Assembly: GCF_003334355.1 (NCBI RefSeq)
Contig: NZ_QOWP01000031.1
Strand: one strand, 5' to 3'
Origin: Escherichia coli
GTDB lineage: Bacteria; Pseudomonadota; Gammaproteobacteria; Enterobacterales; Enterobacteriaceae
Length of the DNA stretch: 41,182 nucleotides
A program made the translations under genes and the position numbers. Shown in pieces: positions 3,106 to 18,992 of the stretch. Every line of letters starts with the position of its first letter. Within the stretch, counting starts at the first letter, position 1. The notes beneath the pieces were generated by a model. It was not told where the DNA came from. It did no database searches and saw nothing but the letters and a program-made list of their open reading frames with translations.

Positions 3106-4206
3106 ATGACCCCCGAACACCTTCCAACAGAACAGTATGAAGCGCAGTTAGCCGAAAAAGTGGTACGTTTGCAAAGTATGATGGCACCGTTTTCTGACCT
3201 GGTTCCGGAAGTGTTTCGCTCGCCGGTCAGTCATTACCGGATGCGCGCGGAGTTCCGCATCTGGCACGATGGCGATGACCTGTATCACATCATTTTCGAT
3301 CAACAAACCAAAAGCCGCATCCGCGTGGATAGCTTCCCCGCCGCCAGTGAACTTATCAACCAGTTGATGACGGCGATGATTGCGGGTGTGCGTAATAATC
3401 CCGTTCTGCGCCACAAGTTGTTCCAGATTGATTACCTCACTACGCTGAGTAATCAGGCGGTGGTTTCCCTGCTATACCATAAGAAGCTGGATGATGAGTG
3501 GCGTCAGGAAGCGGAGGCCCTGCGCGATGCACTGCGCGCGCAGAATCTGAATGTGCATCTGATTGGTCGGGCAACGAAAACCAAAATCGAGCTGGATCAG
3601 GATTACATCGATGAACGTCTGCCGGTCGCAGGGAAAGAGATGATCTACCGTCAGGTAGAAAACAGCTTTACCCAGCCGAACGCGGCGATGAATATTCAGA
3701 TGCTGGAATGGGCGCTGGACGTAACCAAAGGCTCAAAAGGCGATTTACTGGAGCTGTACTGCGGCAACGGTAACTTTTCATTAGCGCTGGCGCGCAATTT
3801 TGATCGGGTATTAGCCACCGAAATCGCTAAGCCGTCGGTTGCTGCTGCGCAATACAACATCGCAGCTAACCATATTGATAACGTACAAATTATTCGTATG
3901 GCGGCAGAAGAATTTACTCAGGCGATGAATGGTGTGCGCGAGTTTAACCGCCTGCAAGGGATCGACTTAAAGAGTTATCAGTGCGAAACCATTTTTGTCG
4001 ACCCACCGCGCAGCGGTCTGGACAGTGAAACCGAGAAAATGGTGCAGGCGTATCCGCGTATTTTGTACATCTCCTGTAACCCGGAAACGTTATGCAAGAA
4101 TCTGGAAACATTAAGCCAGACGCACAAGGTCGAACGTCTGGCTCTGTTTGATCAGTTCCCCTACACGCACCATATGGAGTGCGGCGTATTACTGACCGCG
4201 AAGTAA
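3106..4206 (+). CDS. trmA: tRNA (uracil54-C5)-methyltransferase TrmA
   Basis: 366-aa ORF, full-length match to the remembered TrmA sequence ([18 protein letters not shown]...). Confidence 0.92.
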
Positions 4207-4605: not shown

Positions 4606-5252
4606 TACTCGTCCTTCACATTTCCCGGAATAATTGCGGTTTTCTCTTGTTCACGGCGATACCAGTAATAAGCCCCTTTCGAAATCATTCGCAGTTGCAG
4701 TACCAGTCGCTCTTCTAATTGCCGACGTTGTTCGACGCCGACGTCCAACGCCTCGGCACCCGCACTGAAGACAATTGTCACCATTGCTTCGGCTTGCGCT
4801 TCAGTAAACGCACGCGGCATATGGTTTTCGAGTTCCAGATAGTCCGCAAGTTCCGCAATGAAGTGCTGAATTTCACGCGCAACGGCGGCACGAAACGCAG
4901 CGGAGGTGCCGGAGCGTTCCCGCAATAATAACCGGAAGGCGTTAGGATTATTACCGATGAACTCCATAAATGTGGAGACCGAGGTGCGGATCACACTCCC
5001 GCCTTTGGCGATACGCTGACGCGCCTGGCGCATGAGTTGGCGTAGCATTAAACCGCTCTCATCAACCATGGTCAGACCCAGTTCGTCTACGTCGCGGAAA
5101 TGCCGATAAAAAGAGGTGGGAGCAATGCCCGCTTCACGCGCCACTTCACGCAAACTCAGGCTGGCGAAGCTGCGTTCAGCACTTAATTGGCTAAATGCGG
5201 CTTCCACCAGCGAACGGCGGGTTTTTTCTTTTTGTTGCGCTCTTACGCCCAT
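4605..5252 (-). CDS. fabR: TetR-family repressor of unsaturated fatty-acid synthesis FabR
   Basis: ORF-track 247-aa protein trimmed to the internal Met ([20 protein letters not shown]...), giving 215 aa; helix-turn-helix region recognisable; cat at 5250-5252. Confidence 0.85.
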
Positions 5253-5585
5253 CACGATGTCTGAATCCTTGCCAAAAGTACTGCTGGCACTATACCAGAG
5301 AATGAACATACTGGATTGCTCCAGTATTGTGAATGAACGGTAACGCAATAAAACATATTTACTGCAATTCTTTGGCCGGTTCTTTTACGTACAGCGGAAA
5401 CCTGCCGCTTAAACGGAGAGTATCGTCGATAAAAATCCAATAAAACGTCAGGGCAAAAGTAAGAAACAGACAAAGCAAAGGCCGCTCAGGATATAGCCAG
5501 ATAAATGACGGGGATCAATTGGCTTACCCGCGATAAAATGTTACCATTCTGTTGCTTTTATGTATAAGAACAGGTAAGCCCTACC

Positions 5586-6986
5586 ATGCCACATTCCTAC
5601 GATTACGATGCCATAGTAATAGGTTCCGGCCCCGGCGGCGAAGGCGCTGCAATGGGCCTGGTTAAGCAAGGTGCGCGCGTCGCAGTTATCGAGCGTTATC
5701 AAAATGTTGGCGGCGGTTGCACCCACTGGGGCACCATCCCGTCGAAAGCTCTCCGTCACGCCGTCAGCCGCATTATAGAATTCAATCAAAACCCACTTTA
5801 CAGCGACCATTCCCGACTGCTCCGCTCTTCTTTTGCCGATATCCTTAACCATGCCGATAACGTGATTAATCAACAAACGCGCATGCGTCAGGGATTTTAC
5901 GAACGTAATCACTGTGAAATATTGCAGGGAAACGCTCGCTTTGTTGACGAGCATACGTTGGCGCTGGATTGCCCGGACGGCAGCGTTGAAACACTAACCG
6001 CTGAAAAATTTGTTATTGCCTGCGGCTCTCGTCCATATCATCCAACAGATGTTGATTTCACCCATCCACGCATTTACGACAGCGACTCAATTCTCAGCAT
6101 GCACCACGAACCGCGCCATGTACTTATCTATGGTGCTGGAGTGATCGGCTGTGAATATGCGTCGATCTTCCGCGGTATGGATGTAAAAGTGGATCTGATC
6201 AACACCCGCGATCGCCTGCTGGCATTTCTCGATCAAGAGATGTCAGATTCTCTCTCCTATCACTTCTGGAACAGTGGCGTAGTGATTCGTCACAACGAAG
6301 AGTACGAGAAGATCGAAGGCTGTGACGATGGTGTGATCATGCATCTGAAGTCGGGTAAAAAACTGAAAGCTGACTGCCTGCTCTATGCCAACGGTCGCAC
6401 CGGTAATACCGATTCGCTGGCGTTACAGAACATTGGGCTAGAAACTGACAGCCGCGGACAGCTGAAGGTCAACAGCATGTATCAGACCGCACAGCCACAC
6501 GTTTACGCGGTGGGCGACGTGATTGGTTATCCGAGCCTGGCGTCGGCGGCCTATGACCAGGGGCGCATTGCCGCACAGGCGCTGGTAAAAGGCGAAGCCA
6601 CCGCACATCTGATTGAAGATATCCCTACCGGTATTTACACCATCCCGGAAATCAGCTCTGTGGGCAAAACCGAACAGCAGCTGACCGCAATGAAAGTGCC
6701 ATATGAAGTGGGCCGCGCCCAGTTTAAACATCTGGCACGCGCACAAATCGTCGGCATGAACGTGGGCACGCTGAAAATTTTGTTCCATCGGGAAACAAAA
6801 GAGATTCTGGGTATTCACTGCTTTGGCGAGCGCGCTGCCGAAATTATTCATATCGGTCAGGCGATTATGGAACAGAAAGGTGGCGGCAACACTATTGAGT
6901 ACTTCGTCAACACCACCTTTAACTACCCGACGATGGCGGAAGCCTATCGGGTAGCTGCGTTAAACGGTTTAAACCGCCTGTTTTAA
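5586..6986 (+). CDS. sthA: Soluble pyridine nucleotide transhydrogenase SthA (UdhA)
   Basis: 466-aa ORF with N-terminal FAD-binding motif GSGPGG and flavoprotein disulfide-reductase family architecture; matches remembered SthA. Confidence 0.92.
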
Positions 6987-7886
6987 AACTTTATCGAAAT
7001 GGCCATCCATTCTTGCGCGGATGGCCTCTGCCAGCTGCTCATAGCGGCTGCGCAGCGGTGAGCCAGGACGATAAACCAGGCCAATAGTGCGGCGTGGTTC
7101 CGGCTTAATGCACGGCAGATAAACAACCCCATCGCGTTTGCGCTCCGGCGGCACAGCCAGCGCTGGCAGTAAAGTGATCCCGCTACCTGCCGCCACCATG
7201 TTGCGCAGAGTTTCCAGGCTGGTCGCGCGGAAGTGTGTATCTTCATCCGCCCCGGCTTCAAAACAGAAACCCATTGCCTGATCGCGCAAACAGTGACCAT
7301 CTTCCAGCATCAGCAGTTTTTCCCCTGCCAGATCGGCCATCGGTACGCATTCGCGGTTCGCCCACGGGTGATCTTCATAGATAGCCAGCAACATTGGCTC
7401 ATCAAACAACGGCACTTCAATGAATGCTTCGCTCTCTTTCACCAGCGCGAGGATCACGCAATCGAGTTTGCCGCTGTCCAGTTGCGCCAGTAACTGGTGG
7501 GTCTGTGCTTCATGCAGATACATTTCCAGCTTTGGAAAGGTCTGGTGCAGCATAGGGATAATATGCGGTAGCAGGTACGGTCCAACTGTGGGAATCAAAC
7601 CAATGTGCAGCGGTCCGGACATCGTCTCGCCCTGCTGGCTTGCCATCTCTTTAAGGACTTTCACCTCACGCAGCACGGTACGCGCCTGATCCACCAGCAG
7701 CATTCCCGCCTGGGTGAACAACACTTTACGGCTGGTCCGCTCCAGCAACATCACGCCCAGCTCATCTTCCAGCTTACGAATTTGCCCGCTAAGCGTCGGC
7801 TGGCTAACGTGGCAGGAATCTGCCGCACGCCGAAAATGGCGGTGTTCAGCCAATGCCACCAGGTACTCAAGATCACGAATATTCAT
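6969..7886 (-). CDS. oxyR: LysR-family hydrogen-peroxide-responsive regulator OxyR
   Basis: 305 aa from the internal Met ([44 protein letters not shown]...); the 3' end overlaps the sthA 3' end convergently by 18 bp. Confidence 0.92.
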
Positions 7887-7981
7887 TATCCATCCTCCAT
7901 CGCCACGATAGTTCATGGCGATAGGTAGAATAGCAATGAACGATTATCCCTATCAAGCATTCTGACTGATAATTGCTCACA
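7887..7981. promoter_or_regulatory. Divergent oxyR/oxyS promoter region with OxyR operator
   Basis: Intergenic segment between the oxyR start and the oxyS 5' end (ATAGGTAGAATAGCAATGAACGATTATCCCTATCAAGCATTC...); OxyR autoregulation and oxyS activation from this region is established knowledge. Individual operator half-sites were not delimited. Confidence 0.6.
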
Positions 7982-8090
7982 GAAACGGAGCGGCACCTCT
8001 TTTAACCCTTGAAGTCACTGCCCGTTTCGAGAGTTTCTCAACTCGAATAACTAAAGCCAACGTGAACTTTTGCGGATCTCCAGGATCCGC
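7982..8090 (+). ncRNA. oxyS: OxyS small regulatory RNA
   Basis: 109-nt sequence GAAACGGAGCGGCACCTCTTTTAACCCTTGAAGTCACTGCCCGTTTCGAGAGTTTCTCAACTCGAATAACTAAAGCCAACGTGAACTTTTGCGGATCTCCAGGATCCGC matches oxyS as I remember it; ends in a GC hairpin (GCGGATCTCCAGGATCCGC) followed by T8 at 8091-8098. Confidence 0.85.
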
Positions 8091-8152
8091 TTTTTTTTGC
8101 CATAAAAAAGCCCGGCGATAAGCCAGGCTCAAATTTATACATATAAATGTTC

Positions 8153-9526
8153 TTACCCTAACCGAGCATGCGCAAAAGCAATCGCCTGCGCCACCTGCTG
8201 CGGTGAGACGCCGCCTTTTGCCGCACGCTTGTCGAGGCACGATTGCAGCGACAGAATCGGATAGACATCTTCGTCAATCACCTGACTGAATTTCTGCAAC
8301 TCACTGAGCGGCAGATCTTCCAGCGGTTTGCCCTGACGAATGGCTTCCACCACCGCTTCACCAACAATATGGTGCGCCTCGCGGAACGGTACGCCTTTCG
8401 CCACCAGATAATCCGCCAGTTCGGTGGCGTTGGCGTAACCCTGCTGAGCCGCTTCCTGGCAACGTGGACGTTTCACCTGAATGCCGTCCAGCACCAGCGC
8501 CGCCATATGCAGGCAGTCCAGCCAGGTATCGAGCGCGTCGAACAGACCTTCTTTGTCTTCCTGCATATCTTTGTTGTAAGCCAGCGGCAAACCTTTCAGC
8601 GTCATCATCATGCCGGTTAACGCCCCCTGCACCCGACCGCATTTACCGCGAATCAGCTCCAGCGCATCCGGGTTTTTCTTCTGCGGCATTAATGATGAAC
8701 CGGAAGTCACGCGGTCAGAAAGCTCCACAAACCCCGCTTCGCCGGTGTTAAAGAAAATCAGATCTTCAGCAAAACGCGACAGATGCACCATGCCGATAGC
8801 GGCAGCAGAAAGCAGTTCCAACACATGGTCACGGTCAGAAACGCTGTCGAGACTGTTACGGGTCGCCGAAGCAAAGCCCAGCCAGCCTGCTAACTGTTCA
8901 CGGTCGATTTCATAGGCCGTTCCCGCCAGCGCGCCACAGCCTAGCGGGCTGACATCCAGACGCTTAAGCGCATCCTGCAAACGGCTTTCATCACGCGCCA
9001 GCATCTCAACATAGGCCAGGCACCAGTGCGCGAACGTCACCGGCTGGGCGCGTTGCAGGTGAGTGTAACCTGGCATTACCGCGTCCTGATTGTTTTGTGC
9101 GGTTTCCACCAGCGCCGATTGCAGCTGCCGGTTAGCCGTCAGTAACTCGCTAACGGTATCTTTGCACCACAGTTTCAGGTCAGTCGCTACCTGATCATTA
9201 CGGCTACGCCCGGTATGCAGCTTTTTGCCTAACTGGCCCACTTTGTCGATCAGTTTGCCTTCCACCCAGCTATGGATATCTTCGGCGTCGCTTTCAAGGA
9301 TTTGTTGTGGCCTGGCGCGAACATCTTCCAGCAACACGTTCAGCGCCTCTTCCAGTTGCGCCTGCTCTTCTGCGGTTAACACGCCTACCGTGACCAGGGC
9401 TTTGGACCAGGCCACAGAGCCAACAATATCCTGCTCCGCCAGACGGTAATCAAAGCGCAGTGAGTCGTTGAATTGTTTGAACCGTTGATCTGCTGCCTGG
9501 GTAAAACGCCCGCCCCAAAGTGCCAT
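8153..9526 (-). CDS. argH: Argininosuccinate lyase ArgH
   Basis: 457-aa ORF, full-length match to remembered ArgH ([34 protein letters not shown]...). Confidence 0.93.
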
Positions 9527-17812: not shown

Positions 17813-18664
17813 ATGTATCACGACGTCAGCTATCTGCTCTCCCGCCTGATCAACGGCCCGCTGTCCCTGCGCCAGATTTACTTTGCCAGCAGTAACGGCC
17901 CGGTGCCCGATCTTGCGTATCAGGTCGATTTTCCACGGCTGGAAATTGTGCTGGAAGGTGAGTTTGTTGATACCGGCGCTGGAGCAACGTTAGTTCCCGG
18001 CGATGTGCTGTACGTTGCCGCTGGTGGCTGGAATTTCCCACAATGGAAAACACCCGCTACCACCTTTAGCGTGCTGTTTGGCAAACAGCAACTCGGCTTC
18101 AGCGTCGTGCAATGGGATGGCAAACAATATCAAAATCTGGCGAAGCAACACGTCGCCCGGCGCGGCCCACGCATAGGTTCTTTTCTGCTACAAACGCTCA
18201 ATGAAATGCAAATGCAGCCGCAGGAGCAGCAAACGGCAAGGCTTATCGTCGCCAGCCTGCTTAGCCACTGCCGCGATTTGCTTGGCAGCCAAATCCAGAC
18301 CGCCTCACGCAGCCAGGCACTATTTGAAGCTATTCGCGATTATATCGACGAACGCTATGCCTCCGCGCTTACCCGCGAATCTGTTGCGCAGGCGTTTTAT
18401 ATTTCGCCAAATTACCTCTCGCACCTGTTTCAAAAAACGGGGGCCATTGGTTTTAACGAATACCTGAATCACACGCGACTGGAGCACGCTAAGACGTTAT
18501 TGAAAGGCTATGACCTGAAGGTAAAAGAAGTGGCGCACGCCTGCGGCTTTGTCGACAGCAACTACTTCTGCCGTCTGTTTCGTAAAAACACCGAACGCTC
18601 GCCGTCGGAATATCGTCGGCAGTACCACAGCCAACTGACAGAAAAACCGACTACTCCAGAATAA
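17813..18664 (+). CDS. yijO: AraC/XylS-family transcriptional regulator YijO
   Basis: 283-aa ORF; C-terminal AraC-type HTH recognisable (...YISPNYLSHLFQKTGAIGFNEYLNHTRLEHAKTLL...). Confidence 0.85.
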   Translation: MYHDVSYLLSRLINGPLSLRQIYFASSNGPVPDLAYQVDFPRLEIVLEGEFVDTGAGATLVPGDVLYVAAGGWNFPQWKTPATTFSVLFGKQQLGFSVVQWDGKQYQNLAKQHVARRGPRIGSFLLQTLNEMQMQPQEQQTARLIVASLLSHCRDLLGSQIQTASRSQALFEAIRDYIDERYASALTRESVAQAFYISPNYLSHLFQKTGAIGFNEYLNHTRLEHAKTLLKGYDLKVKEVAHACGFVDSNYFCRLFRKNTERSPSEYRRQYHSQLTEKPTTPE

Positions 18665-18992
18665 GATGGGTTTGCTGCGGCGCAGAAAGCACTTTGCGCA
18701 CCGCGCTCATTACCCGCTGCGGCTCACGCAGGAATGCGTAGATGCTGCATTGCACATAGCGGCAATGTTCAAATCGCTCGGCACCGGCAAGCTCGATATC
18801 CGTAATCAACAGAGCAACATCCGCCCGACGGATATCCTCGTCCGCTAAACGATTCTCCGTTCCCAGCGCGCCCTGAGTTTCAATGCTGACTCCCCACTTC
18901 TCTAACAGGCACAACTTTTCCAGCCGTTCCGCCGCCATATAAGTATGCGCCACGCCACTGACGCAGGCGGTTACTGCCACCAGGTATGCCAT
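18651..18992 (-). CDS. frwD: PTS fructose-like EIIB component FrwD
   Basis: 113-aa ORF with the EIIB motif VTACVSGVAHTYMAAE; convergent 14-bp overlap with the yijO 3' end. Confidence 0.88.
   Translation of the reverse strand: MAYLVAVTACVSGVAHTYMAAERLEKLCLLEKWGVSIETQGALGTENRLADEDIRRADVALLITDIELAGAERFEHCRYVQCSIYAFLREPQRVMSAVRKVLSAPQQTHLILE

Follow-up and report, generated by a model that had tools for sequence, protein, structure and literature searches.

The convergent genes sthA and oxyR of Escherichia coli have their last 18 bp in common, and we consider it probable, at roughly 80%, that this is a genuine and ancient overlap of two well-characterised genes, in which each gene possesses 3'-end determinants of its own embedded in its partner and which has a small effect. 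The overlap would have resulted from the placement of the two stop codons and the loss of the spacer between them, rather than represent a dedicated device.

Coordinates and coding of the overlap

The analysis was based on a stretch of 41,182 nucleotides of an E. coli genome (contig NZ_QOWP01000031.1 of assembly GCF_003334355.1), referred to as the window in the following. According to the list of open reading frames, sthA occupies positions 5586-6986 on the plus strand and encodes the soluble pyridine nucleotide transhydrogenase, a protein of 466 amino acids ending in ALNGLNRLF. On the minus strand, oxyR extends over 6969-7886 and encodes a protein of 305 amino acids ending in DKVLKQAV, whose true start (MNIRDLEYL) is located at 7886 (list of open reading frames and K-12 annotation). 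The two coding sequences thus overlap tail to tail, on both strands, at positions 6969-6986 (TTAAACCGCCTGTTTTAA), i.e. over 18 bp including both stop codons, with 12 bp between the stops. Direct reading of the sequence showed that the two frames are codon-aligned in antisense within this segment: sthA reads TTA/AAC/CGC/CTG/TTT/TAA and oxyR, on the opposite strand, TTA/AAA/CAG/GCG/GTT/TAA. As a consequence, the Leu462 codon of SthA (TTA), read in reverse complement, provides the stop codon TAA of oxyR, and the stop codon TAA of sthA corresponds to Leu301 of OxyR.

An identical overlap is present in the RefSeq annotation of E. coli K-12 MG1655 (oxyR, 4158490..4159407; sthA, 4159390..4160790). 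The window is in reversed orientation with respect to the K-12 MG1655 chromosome, and near the junction window coordinates are obtained by subtracting the K-12 (U00096.3) coordinate from 4166376; the local gene order is trmA, yijD, fabR, sthA, oxyR, oxyS, argH. Positions 5400-8200 of the window are 100% identical to several E. coli strains, its sthA is 100% identical to sthA as annotated in E. coli genomes, and the sthA-oxyR segment was found in all 5426 of 5426 complete E. coli genomes. The 18-bp convergent overlap, which had been noticed in the preliminary description of this DNA, is borne out by the list of open reading frames, by the reading of the sequence and by the K-12 annotation. The two genes share 3'-terminal bases on opposite strands, each coding sequence is genuine as far as its stop codon, and judged by these sequence comparisons the overlap is more than an accident of a single genome.

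Conservation and origin of the overlap

Among 78 informative species of the Enterobacteriaceae, the overlap measures exactly 18 bp in 76 and 27 bp in the remaining two, Enterobacter soli and Pluralibacter gergoviae, in which the codon of Leu462 has become CTG and oxyR is extended to the next antisense stop at Leu459. An overlap of 18 bp is also found in Erwinia, Hafnia, Serratia and Edwardsiella, which belong to four other families of the Enterobacterales; in Pectobacterium it measures 43 bp. SthA Leu462 is encoded by TTA in 72 species, by CTA in four and by CTG in two. TTA and CTA together account for only 8.8% of the Leu codons in the same sthA genes, compared to 76 of 78 at Leu462, and this rare codon is retained because changing it lengthens OxyR. 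Outside of the Enterobacterales, a representative search for the overlap yielded metagenomic sthA homologues without an adjoining oxyR, and Azotobacter vinelandii and Pseudomonas fluorescens lack the arrangement (Partipilo et al. 2022).

The C-terminus of SthA is invariant in every member of the Enterobacterales examined, and more distant representatives keep the pattern AAL(N/D)G.N(R/K)L. A solved transhydrogenase structure of 464 amino acids (STH; PDB 9n4y) ends in AAYDGLNRLF, of which GLNRLF matches SthA to the last residue. Alignments of OxyR with homologues of solved structure from other genera break off at approximately residue 291 of 305. Within the Enterobacterales, OxyR is hypervariable at residues 291-300, and the final LKQAV alone is fixed. 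As far as can be read from these alignments, the last approximately 14 residues of OxyR are not conserved, and the C-terminus of SthA is constrained at the protein level. Read most simply, the tail of OxyR is unconstrained and has come to extend over the constrained end of sthA, a direction of evolution which we infer from the pattern of conservation. By the same reading, the final residues of OxyR would be conserved only as the antisense of NRLF and the stop codon of sthA.

The 3' end of the sthA transcript

In published Term-seq data (Adams 2021, Supplementary file 1, PMC7815308) the dominant steady-state 3' end of the sthA mRNA is located at position 7031 on the plus strand (K-12 4159345, minus strand). 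It is classed there as 'primary sthA / antisense oxyR' and is supported by 78,428 and 54,987 reads in two of the three condition tabs. This position is 45 nt past the sthA stop codon and 5 nt past a stem-loop in the sthA 3' UTR (H1; 7001-7026, plus strand; GGCCAUCC-N10-GGAUGGCC), which lies inside oxyR codons 287-296 and has a predicted folding energy of -15.1 kcal/mol (z -3.4). There is no U-tract after the 3' end; H1 is followed by UCUGCCAGCUG, i.e. not by a uridine-rich tract, and was not flagged by the consensus terminator scan.

The stems at the junction were analyzed in an ungapped alignment of positions 6860-7060 comprising 76 sequences. In the 75 distinct sequences, H1 is paired in 98.8% of cells, and its 10-nt loop is hypervariable. 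A compensatory change from A-U to G-C is seen in nine species, where it combines the replacement of OxyR Ile289 by Val with a synonymous change of Asp294; two more double changes are present, and none of 500 shuffles reached the observed covariation score. In addition, four-fold degenerate sites within the H1 stem are frozen (OxyR A288 is GCC in 72 of 72 and G295 is GGC in 72 of 73 cases). The mean third-position entropy of four-fold codons in oxyR is 1.26 bits, and six of these sites are frozen in the gene, two of them in H1 and two in the 18-bp overlap. Beyond the Enterobacteriaceae, the sthA 3' hairpin of Hafnia and Edwardsiella is a different stem (GCUCGCGGA-N5-UCCGCGAGC), and no obvious sthA 3' hairpin was seen near the stop codon in Pectobacterium; the sthA hairpin is thus not homologous across families.

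Directly after H1, a further stem-loop is predicted on the plus strand (H2; 7029-7054; -18.3 kcal/mol, z -2.9). Its cells are paired to 92.5% as plus-strand RNA and to 86.5% as minus-strand RNA, which leaves the selected strand ambiguous. As a strand-specific element H2 was rejected because the evidence is mixed, with an invariant U-G pair in favour of the plus strand and two C-A columns in favour of the minus strand.

Further downstream on the plus strand, a C-rich and G-poor stretch is followed by a Rho termination region for sthA read-through (7237-7361; K-12 4159015, minus strand). The C/G ratio is approximately 2 at 7237-7336, upstream of the Rho region at 7361, for which a Rho score of 5.81 (p = 6e-31) has been reported and which is antisense to oxyR (Adams 2021, Supplementary file 2, PMC7815308). 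This region is located about 375 nt past the sthA stop codon, inside oxyR, and is bicyclomycin-sensitive. With a precise 3' end after a stable stem-loop, no U-tract, and downstream read-through that is raised by Rho inhibition, the sthA transcript resembles a known class of Rho-dependent transcripts whose precise 3' ends lie just past U-less, exonuclease-blocking stem-loops (Dar & Sorek 2018). The resemblance includes the distance of only 5 nt between stem-loop and 3' end and the bicyclomycin-sensitive region with its C-rich stretch downstream. In contrast to that class, the stem-loop of sthA is made of codons of the partner gene and is thus under dual constraint, and the stronger H2 is located just downstream of H1, yet the 3' end maps elsewhere.

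We propose that the sthA mRNA would be terminated by Rho and then trimmed back to the protective H1, presumably by a 3'-to-5' exonuclease such as PNPase or RNase II, to end at 7031, and that read-through would be halted by Rho approximately 375 nt into oxyR. However, the predicted stability of H2 exceeds that of H1, and yet the dominant 3' end sits at the 5' foot of H2. An exonuclease that starts at a distal Rho site should be halted first by H2, and simple 3'-to-5' trimming therefore does not obviously explain the end at 7031. One possibility is an endonucleolytic cleavage, either by RNase III acting on a duplex with the oxyR mRNA or by RNase E, followed by trimming to H1.

The 3' end of the oxyR transcript

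On the opposite strand, the oxyR transcript ends in a Rho termination region at position 6867 (minus strand; K-12 4159509, plus strand), about 100 nt past the oxyR stop codon and inside sthA. This region has a Rho score of 5.10 (p = 3e-16), is antisense to sthA and is bicyclomycin-sensitive (Adams 2021, Supplementary file 2, PMC7815308). The end of the operon in the Conway map, in the form in which it is cited in Table S1 of Huang 2020 (PMC7373196), corresponds to position 6859 of the window. The 3' end of oxyR is thus derived from the call of a Rho region and from an operon boundary in RNA-seq data, and not from a curated Term-seq peak.

Two stem-loops are predicted in the oxyR 3' UTR on the minus strand: HA (6921-6956), inside sthA codons 446-457, and the long stem-loop HB (6876-6920), inside sthA codons 431-445, whose G+C core is followed by UUUCUGUU. 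Their joint fold has a predicted energy of -36.9 kcal/mol (z -4.2). The outer stem of HA, which consists of 11 pairs, is paired to 91.5% as minus-strand RNA compared to 69.2% as plus-strand RNA; the corresponding values for the 15 pairs of HB are 99.6% and 85.7%, and the variable third positions in HB all toggle between A-U and G-U states on the minus strand. Codon choice in this part of sthA is restricted as well. In HB, T443 and T444 of SthA are encoded by ACC in 78 of 78 species; of the 137 four-fold sites in sthA only three are frozen, and T443 and T444 are two of these. Gly432-434 are always encoded by GGY, never with a purine at the third position, compared to 21% purine among sthA Gly codons overall; in HA, the rare Arg455 codon CGG is retained in 77 of 78 species. 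Five more distant Enterobacterales also have a strong hairpin at the position of HB, shifted in register. Within the Enterobacteriaceae, variation in both HA and HB is confined to one side of the stem (A-U to G-U), with zero double compensatory changes, and the shuffle control is uninformative for these two stems due to this one-sided variation. C/T transitions at third positions are in any case the commonest synonymous change.

Past the oxyR 3' end, no clear C-rich, rut-like stretch was seen. The oxyR mRNA would end near 6867 after HA and HB, with Rho limiting further read-through.

Termination without intergenic DNA

As there is no intergenic DNA between the two genes, each transcript must end inside the partner gene, and each 3' UTR is antisense to the end of the partner's coding sequence. 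It had been claimed in the preliminary description that the overlap leaves no room for independent terminators and that the genes must read through each other. The former does not hold, as sthA has H1 (7001-7026) and oxyR has HA and HB (6876-6956), both located in the coding sequence of the partner; each gene's own 3'-end determinant sits in the codons of its partner, with synonymous sites frozen across species. That each transcript runs into the partner gene, on the other hand, is confirmed by published Term-seq data, Rho regions, an excludon listing and dsRNA captured with p19. The 3' ends do not coincide with the stop codons, but are located at 7031 and approximately 6867.

A consensus scan detected no canonical intrinsic terminator within 6860-7060 on either strand. 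Over the full range scanned, 5300-8300, the known terminators of oxyS and argH were the sole sites detected, with none at the junction. HB does not have the form of a canonical terminator, with a loop of 13 nt and only UUUCUGUU after the G+C core. A search against Rfam at a permissive threshold, covering 5000-9000, gave OxyS at 7982-8091 as the sole match. The palindrome CGGTTTAAACCG over the oxyR stop codon was rejected as an element because it lacks conservation, with GGC instead of GGT in most species, and shows poor pairing across species. A literature search for a small RNA from the sthA 3' UTR or a link to ProQ or Hfq returned only the regulation of sthA by Spot 42, which is unrelated to the 3' end, and the SMRT-Cappable-seq supplements are without an entry for sthA or oxyR.

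Pairing of the two transcripts

From the mapped ends, the sthA and oxyR mRNAs share at least 165 nt of complementary sequence (6867-7031), or approximately 380 nt if read-through is included; the Conway operon maps, as cited in Huang 2020 (PMC7373196), give an oxyR/sthA overlap of 379 nt. The pairs oxyR-sthA and frwD-yijO are both among 165 convergent excludons recorded in half or more of 58 RNA-seq samples (ExcludonFinder 2025, PMC12288877). In addition, dsRNA clusters of about 21 nt, captured with p19 and labelled 'oxyR sthA, 3', Convergent', have been described for both exponential and stationary phase (Huang 2020, PMC7373196). Clusters E-268 and S-345 in Table S1 of that study place sense/antisense dsRNA cut by RNase III in vivo at positions 6921-7265 on both strands; the published coordinates (U00096.2 4157134-4157478) were shifted by +1977 and then converted to the window. 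Overlapping transcripts, RNA pairing and RNase III processing, which characterize excludons, are thus all present in published data. The sthA and oxyR mRNAs pair in vivo, and RNase III cuts the duplex.

The consequences for expression are probably small. In rnc-mutant proteomics (Huang 2020, Table S2, PMC7373196, as read here) SthA changed 1.37-fold and 1.17-fold and OxyR 1.26-fold and 0.67-fold in two conditions, and it is this data set from which we infer the size of the effect of mRNA pairing. Generally, 276 of 370 convergent operons in E. coli have 3' ends that overlap, with a mean overlap of 286 nt (PMC4161252). Overlapping 3' ends are therefore the rule for convergent operons in this organism, and an overlap alone does not imply regulation. 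That the overlap couples the expression of sthA and oxyR, as considered in the preliminary description, is unproven.

Alternative explanations

Short overlaps can reflect mis-called gene ends, and we therefore considered an annotation artefact, in which a stop codon was wrongly assigned or one of the two proteins ends earlier. We found nothing in favour of it, and its probability is practically nil: stop codons are unambiguous, unlike starts, both frames are open up to their stops, the PDB entries of OxyR (1i69/1i6a, covering residues 87-305) reach residue 305, homologues match SthA to its last residue, and 76 of 78 species show the same overlap. An artefact is thus ruled out by the sequence. 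A different view of the junction is that both genes use one bidirectional terminator, or that polymerases collide head-on at a defined stem-loop, as in the class of Ju et al. 2019 and Wang et al. 2022. The convergent orientation, the stem-loops at the junction and the lack of a canonical intrinsic terminator fit this view, and the collision model needs a stem-loop but no U-tract. However, the mapped 3' ends are separated by 165 nt and each lies behind a hairpin of its own, H1 for sthA and HB for oxyR, and the bidirectional class is described as Rho-independent, whereas read-through of sthA and oxyR is bicyclomycin-sensitive on both strands. Moreover, collisions would be rare given that oxyR is weakly transcribed. 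A single Rho-independent stem-loop serving both genes is not what is seen at sthA-oxyR, and we regard a shared terminator or collision site as very unlikely.

More attention is deserved by a functional excludon, in which transcription of one gene lowers the expression of the other via polymerase collision or RNase III cleavage of the mRNA duplex, and which would reciprocally link the H2O2 sensor OxyR with the NADPH-consuming transhydrogenase SthA. The transcripts do overlap in half or more of 58 RNA-seq samples, the dsRNA cluster captured with p19 is found in both growth phases, the arrangement is conserved across the Enterobacterales, and both genes concern redox balance, an idea that was also raised by Partipilo 2022. 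On the other hand, no experiment on reciprocal expression was found in published work, protein changes in the rnc mutant are at most about 1.5-fold, overlap is the default for 75% of convergent E. coli operons, and read-through is kept in check by Rho on both strands; the conservation needs no explanation beyond dual-coding constraint and synteny. We therefore consider functional interference between the two genes improbable, and slightly more doubtful still is the idea that the exact 18-bp overlap and its embedded stem-loops are maintained as a working redox excludon. If true, such an excludon would couple the peroxide sensor's setting with the NADPH/NADH balance across the Enterobacterales. 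With excludons in general, the junction shares the listing of oxyR-sthA and frwD-yijO among published convergent pairs and, for oxyR-sthA, the capture of junction dsRNA by p19; it differs in that mutually exclusive expression, the defining outcome, is hypothetical for both pairs and in that Rho curtails read-through.

An overlap set by stop-codon placement, the reading that we prefer, agrees well with what is seen in other bacterial tail-to-tail pairs. These also consist of real coding sequences on opposite strands with common 3' ends, the extent of the overlap is set by the position of the stop codons, the antisense frame is codon-aligned, and the stops arise from TTA or CTA Leu codons. There is no essential difference, although sthA-oxyR is better conserved than most and both of its proteins are well studied. 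The convergent E. coli genes ilvA and ilvY, a classic case, reportedly have transcripts that overlap and terminate within each other (Sameshima et al. 1989, as cited in PMC4161252), and judged by the title of that paper they resemble sthA-oxyR in convergent overlapping transcription and termination.

Significance

The overlap itself is already known: it is contained in the reference annotation, was discussed in 2022, its dsRNA was captured in 2020, and it is listed in the excludome of 2025; it is real but ordinary. Partipilo et al. 2022 noted a '12-nucleotide overlap' of this pair and suggested a possible transcriptional regulation; by our own arithmetic, 18 bp minus the two stop codons gives 12, which matches their figure. 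What is added here is that the overlap is fixed across several families of the Enterobacterales by a rare Leu codon which doubles as the oxyR stop, and that the 3' stem-loops of each gene are written in the codons of the partner, with synonymous sites visibly frozen. This is a modest and incremental advance, and it makes sthA-oxyR a tidy textbook example of dual coding combined with RNA-structure constraint.

There is also a practical aspect. Synonymous recoding or deletion of either 3' end alters the coding tail or the 3' UTR of the other gene. Knock-outs of sthA are common in metabolic engineering and represent an example where this warning applies to deletions of the 3' end. If reciprocal regulation were real, redox sensing would be linked to the control of transhydrogenase, but nothing in our analysis indicates a strong effect.

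A second convergent overlap in the window

A tail-to-tail overlap of 14 bp between yijO and frwD, also pointed out previously, agrees with the coordinates of the open reading frames and with the K-12 annotation. In the window it is located at 18651-18664 on both strands, between yijO (17813-18664, plus strand) and frwD (18651-18992, minus strand), and in K-12 between frwD at 4147138..4147479 and yijO at 4147466..4148317. Both genes are weakly expressed; the junction is without 3'-end entries in Adams 2021 (PMC7815308) and without dsRNA clusters in Huang 2020 (PMC7373196), and no convincing terminator-like site was seen there. The yijO-frwD junction was found in 5417 of 5426 E. coli genomes. 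Based on the 75 convergent overlaps of coding sequences in E. coli (Huvet & Stumpf 2014, PMC4161906), approximately 0.7 such overlaps are expected per 41 kb, and the presence of two in the window is therefore unremarkable.

A second in-frame stop codon for oxyR

Leu459 of SthA (window 6960-6962), which in the sthA frame lies three codons upstream of the 18-bp overlap with the convergent oxyR gene (6969-6986), is encoded by TTA or CTA in 39 of 78 informative species-level Enterobacteriaceae genomes, as against 8.8% expected from the combined share of these codons among sthA leucine codons. Either codon creates an in-frame 'backup' stop for oxyR, located 9 nt past the usual one, and this stop is in actual use in both species with a 27-bp overlap. 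In E. coli the usual oxyR stop is spanned by a perfect 12-nt palindrome (CGGTTTAAACCG, window 6965-6976), which is not conserved among relatives because most of these encode Gly461 by GGC, not GGT.

Directly after H1, the first stem-loop in the sthA 3' untranslated region, follows a second hairpin (H2, window 7029-7054; -18.3 kcal/mol), whose U-G pair 7036-7046 does not vary across 75 sequences. The published sthA 3' end (7031) coincides with the 5' foot of H2, despite the higher predicted stability of H2 compared with H1.

Variant junctions in relatives

In Pseudocitrobacter (L027, L031, L034), SthA ends in NRLW, the coding sequence of the OxyR tail carries three inserted nucleotides and H1 is degraded, yet the 18-bp overlap is retained. 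The gene for a metagenomic SthA homologue (L088/L089; 59% identity, C-terminus GLNRLC) overlaps at its 3' end by 17 bp (3894-3910 of these loci) with another convergent gene, whose 783-aa product gave no Pfam match. The sthA end seems to be prone to tail-to-tail overlaps. The divergent neighbour of oxyR in Erwinia, Hafnia, Serratia and Edwardsiella (L083, L085, L086, L087; about 4937-5704) codes for a hybrid of AhpC-TSA and glutaredoxin, about 243 aa long, and occupies the position held by oxyS and argH in E. coli.

Neighbouring gene pairs and antisense RNA

In contrast to sthA and oxyR, the convergent neighbours OxyS (window 7982-8091, plus strand; Rfam RF00035, 139.5 bits) and argH possess two separate intrinsic terminators within a short spacer, that of OxyS at 8072-8090 (plus strand) and argH's own terminator-like hairpin at 8130-8108 (minus strand). 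According to the K-12 annotation, fabR and yijD overlap by 1 bp, and the span of the window also includes two long same-strand overlaps, pflD-pflC (K-12 4146258-4146292, 35 bp) and btuB-murI (4165428-4165483, 56 bp).

Huang 2020 (Table S1, PMC7373196) reports a separate cluster of p19-captured double-stranded RNA at the sthA 5' end (U00096.2 4158623-4158826) and places an antisense start site at 4158793, on the plus strand of that reference. The cluster corresponds to window positions of about 5573-5776, the sthA start region; cluster and start site together thus indicate that the sthA translation start, too, is covered by antisense RNA.
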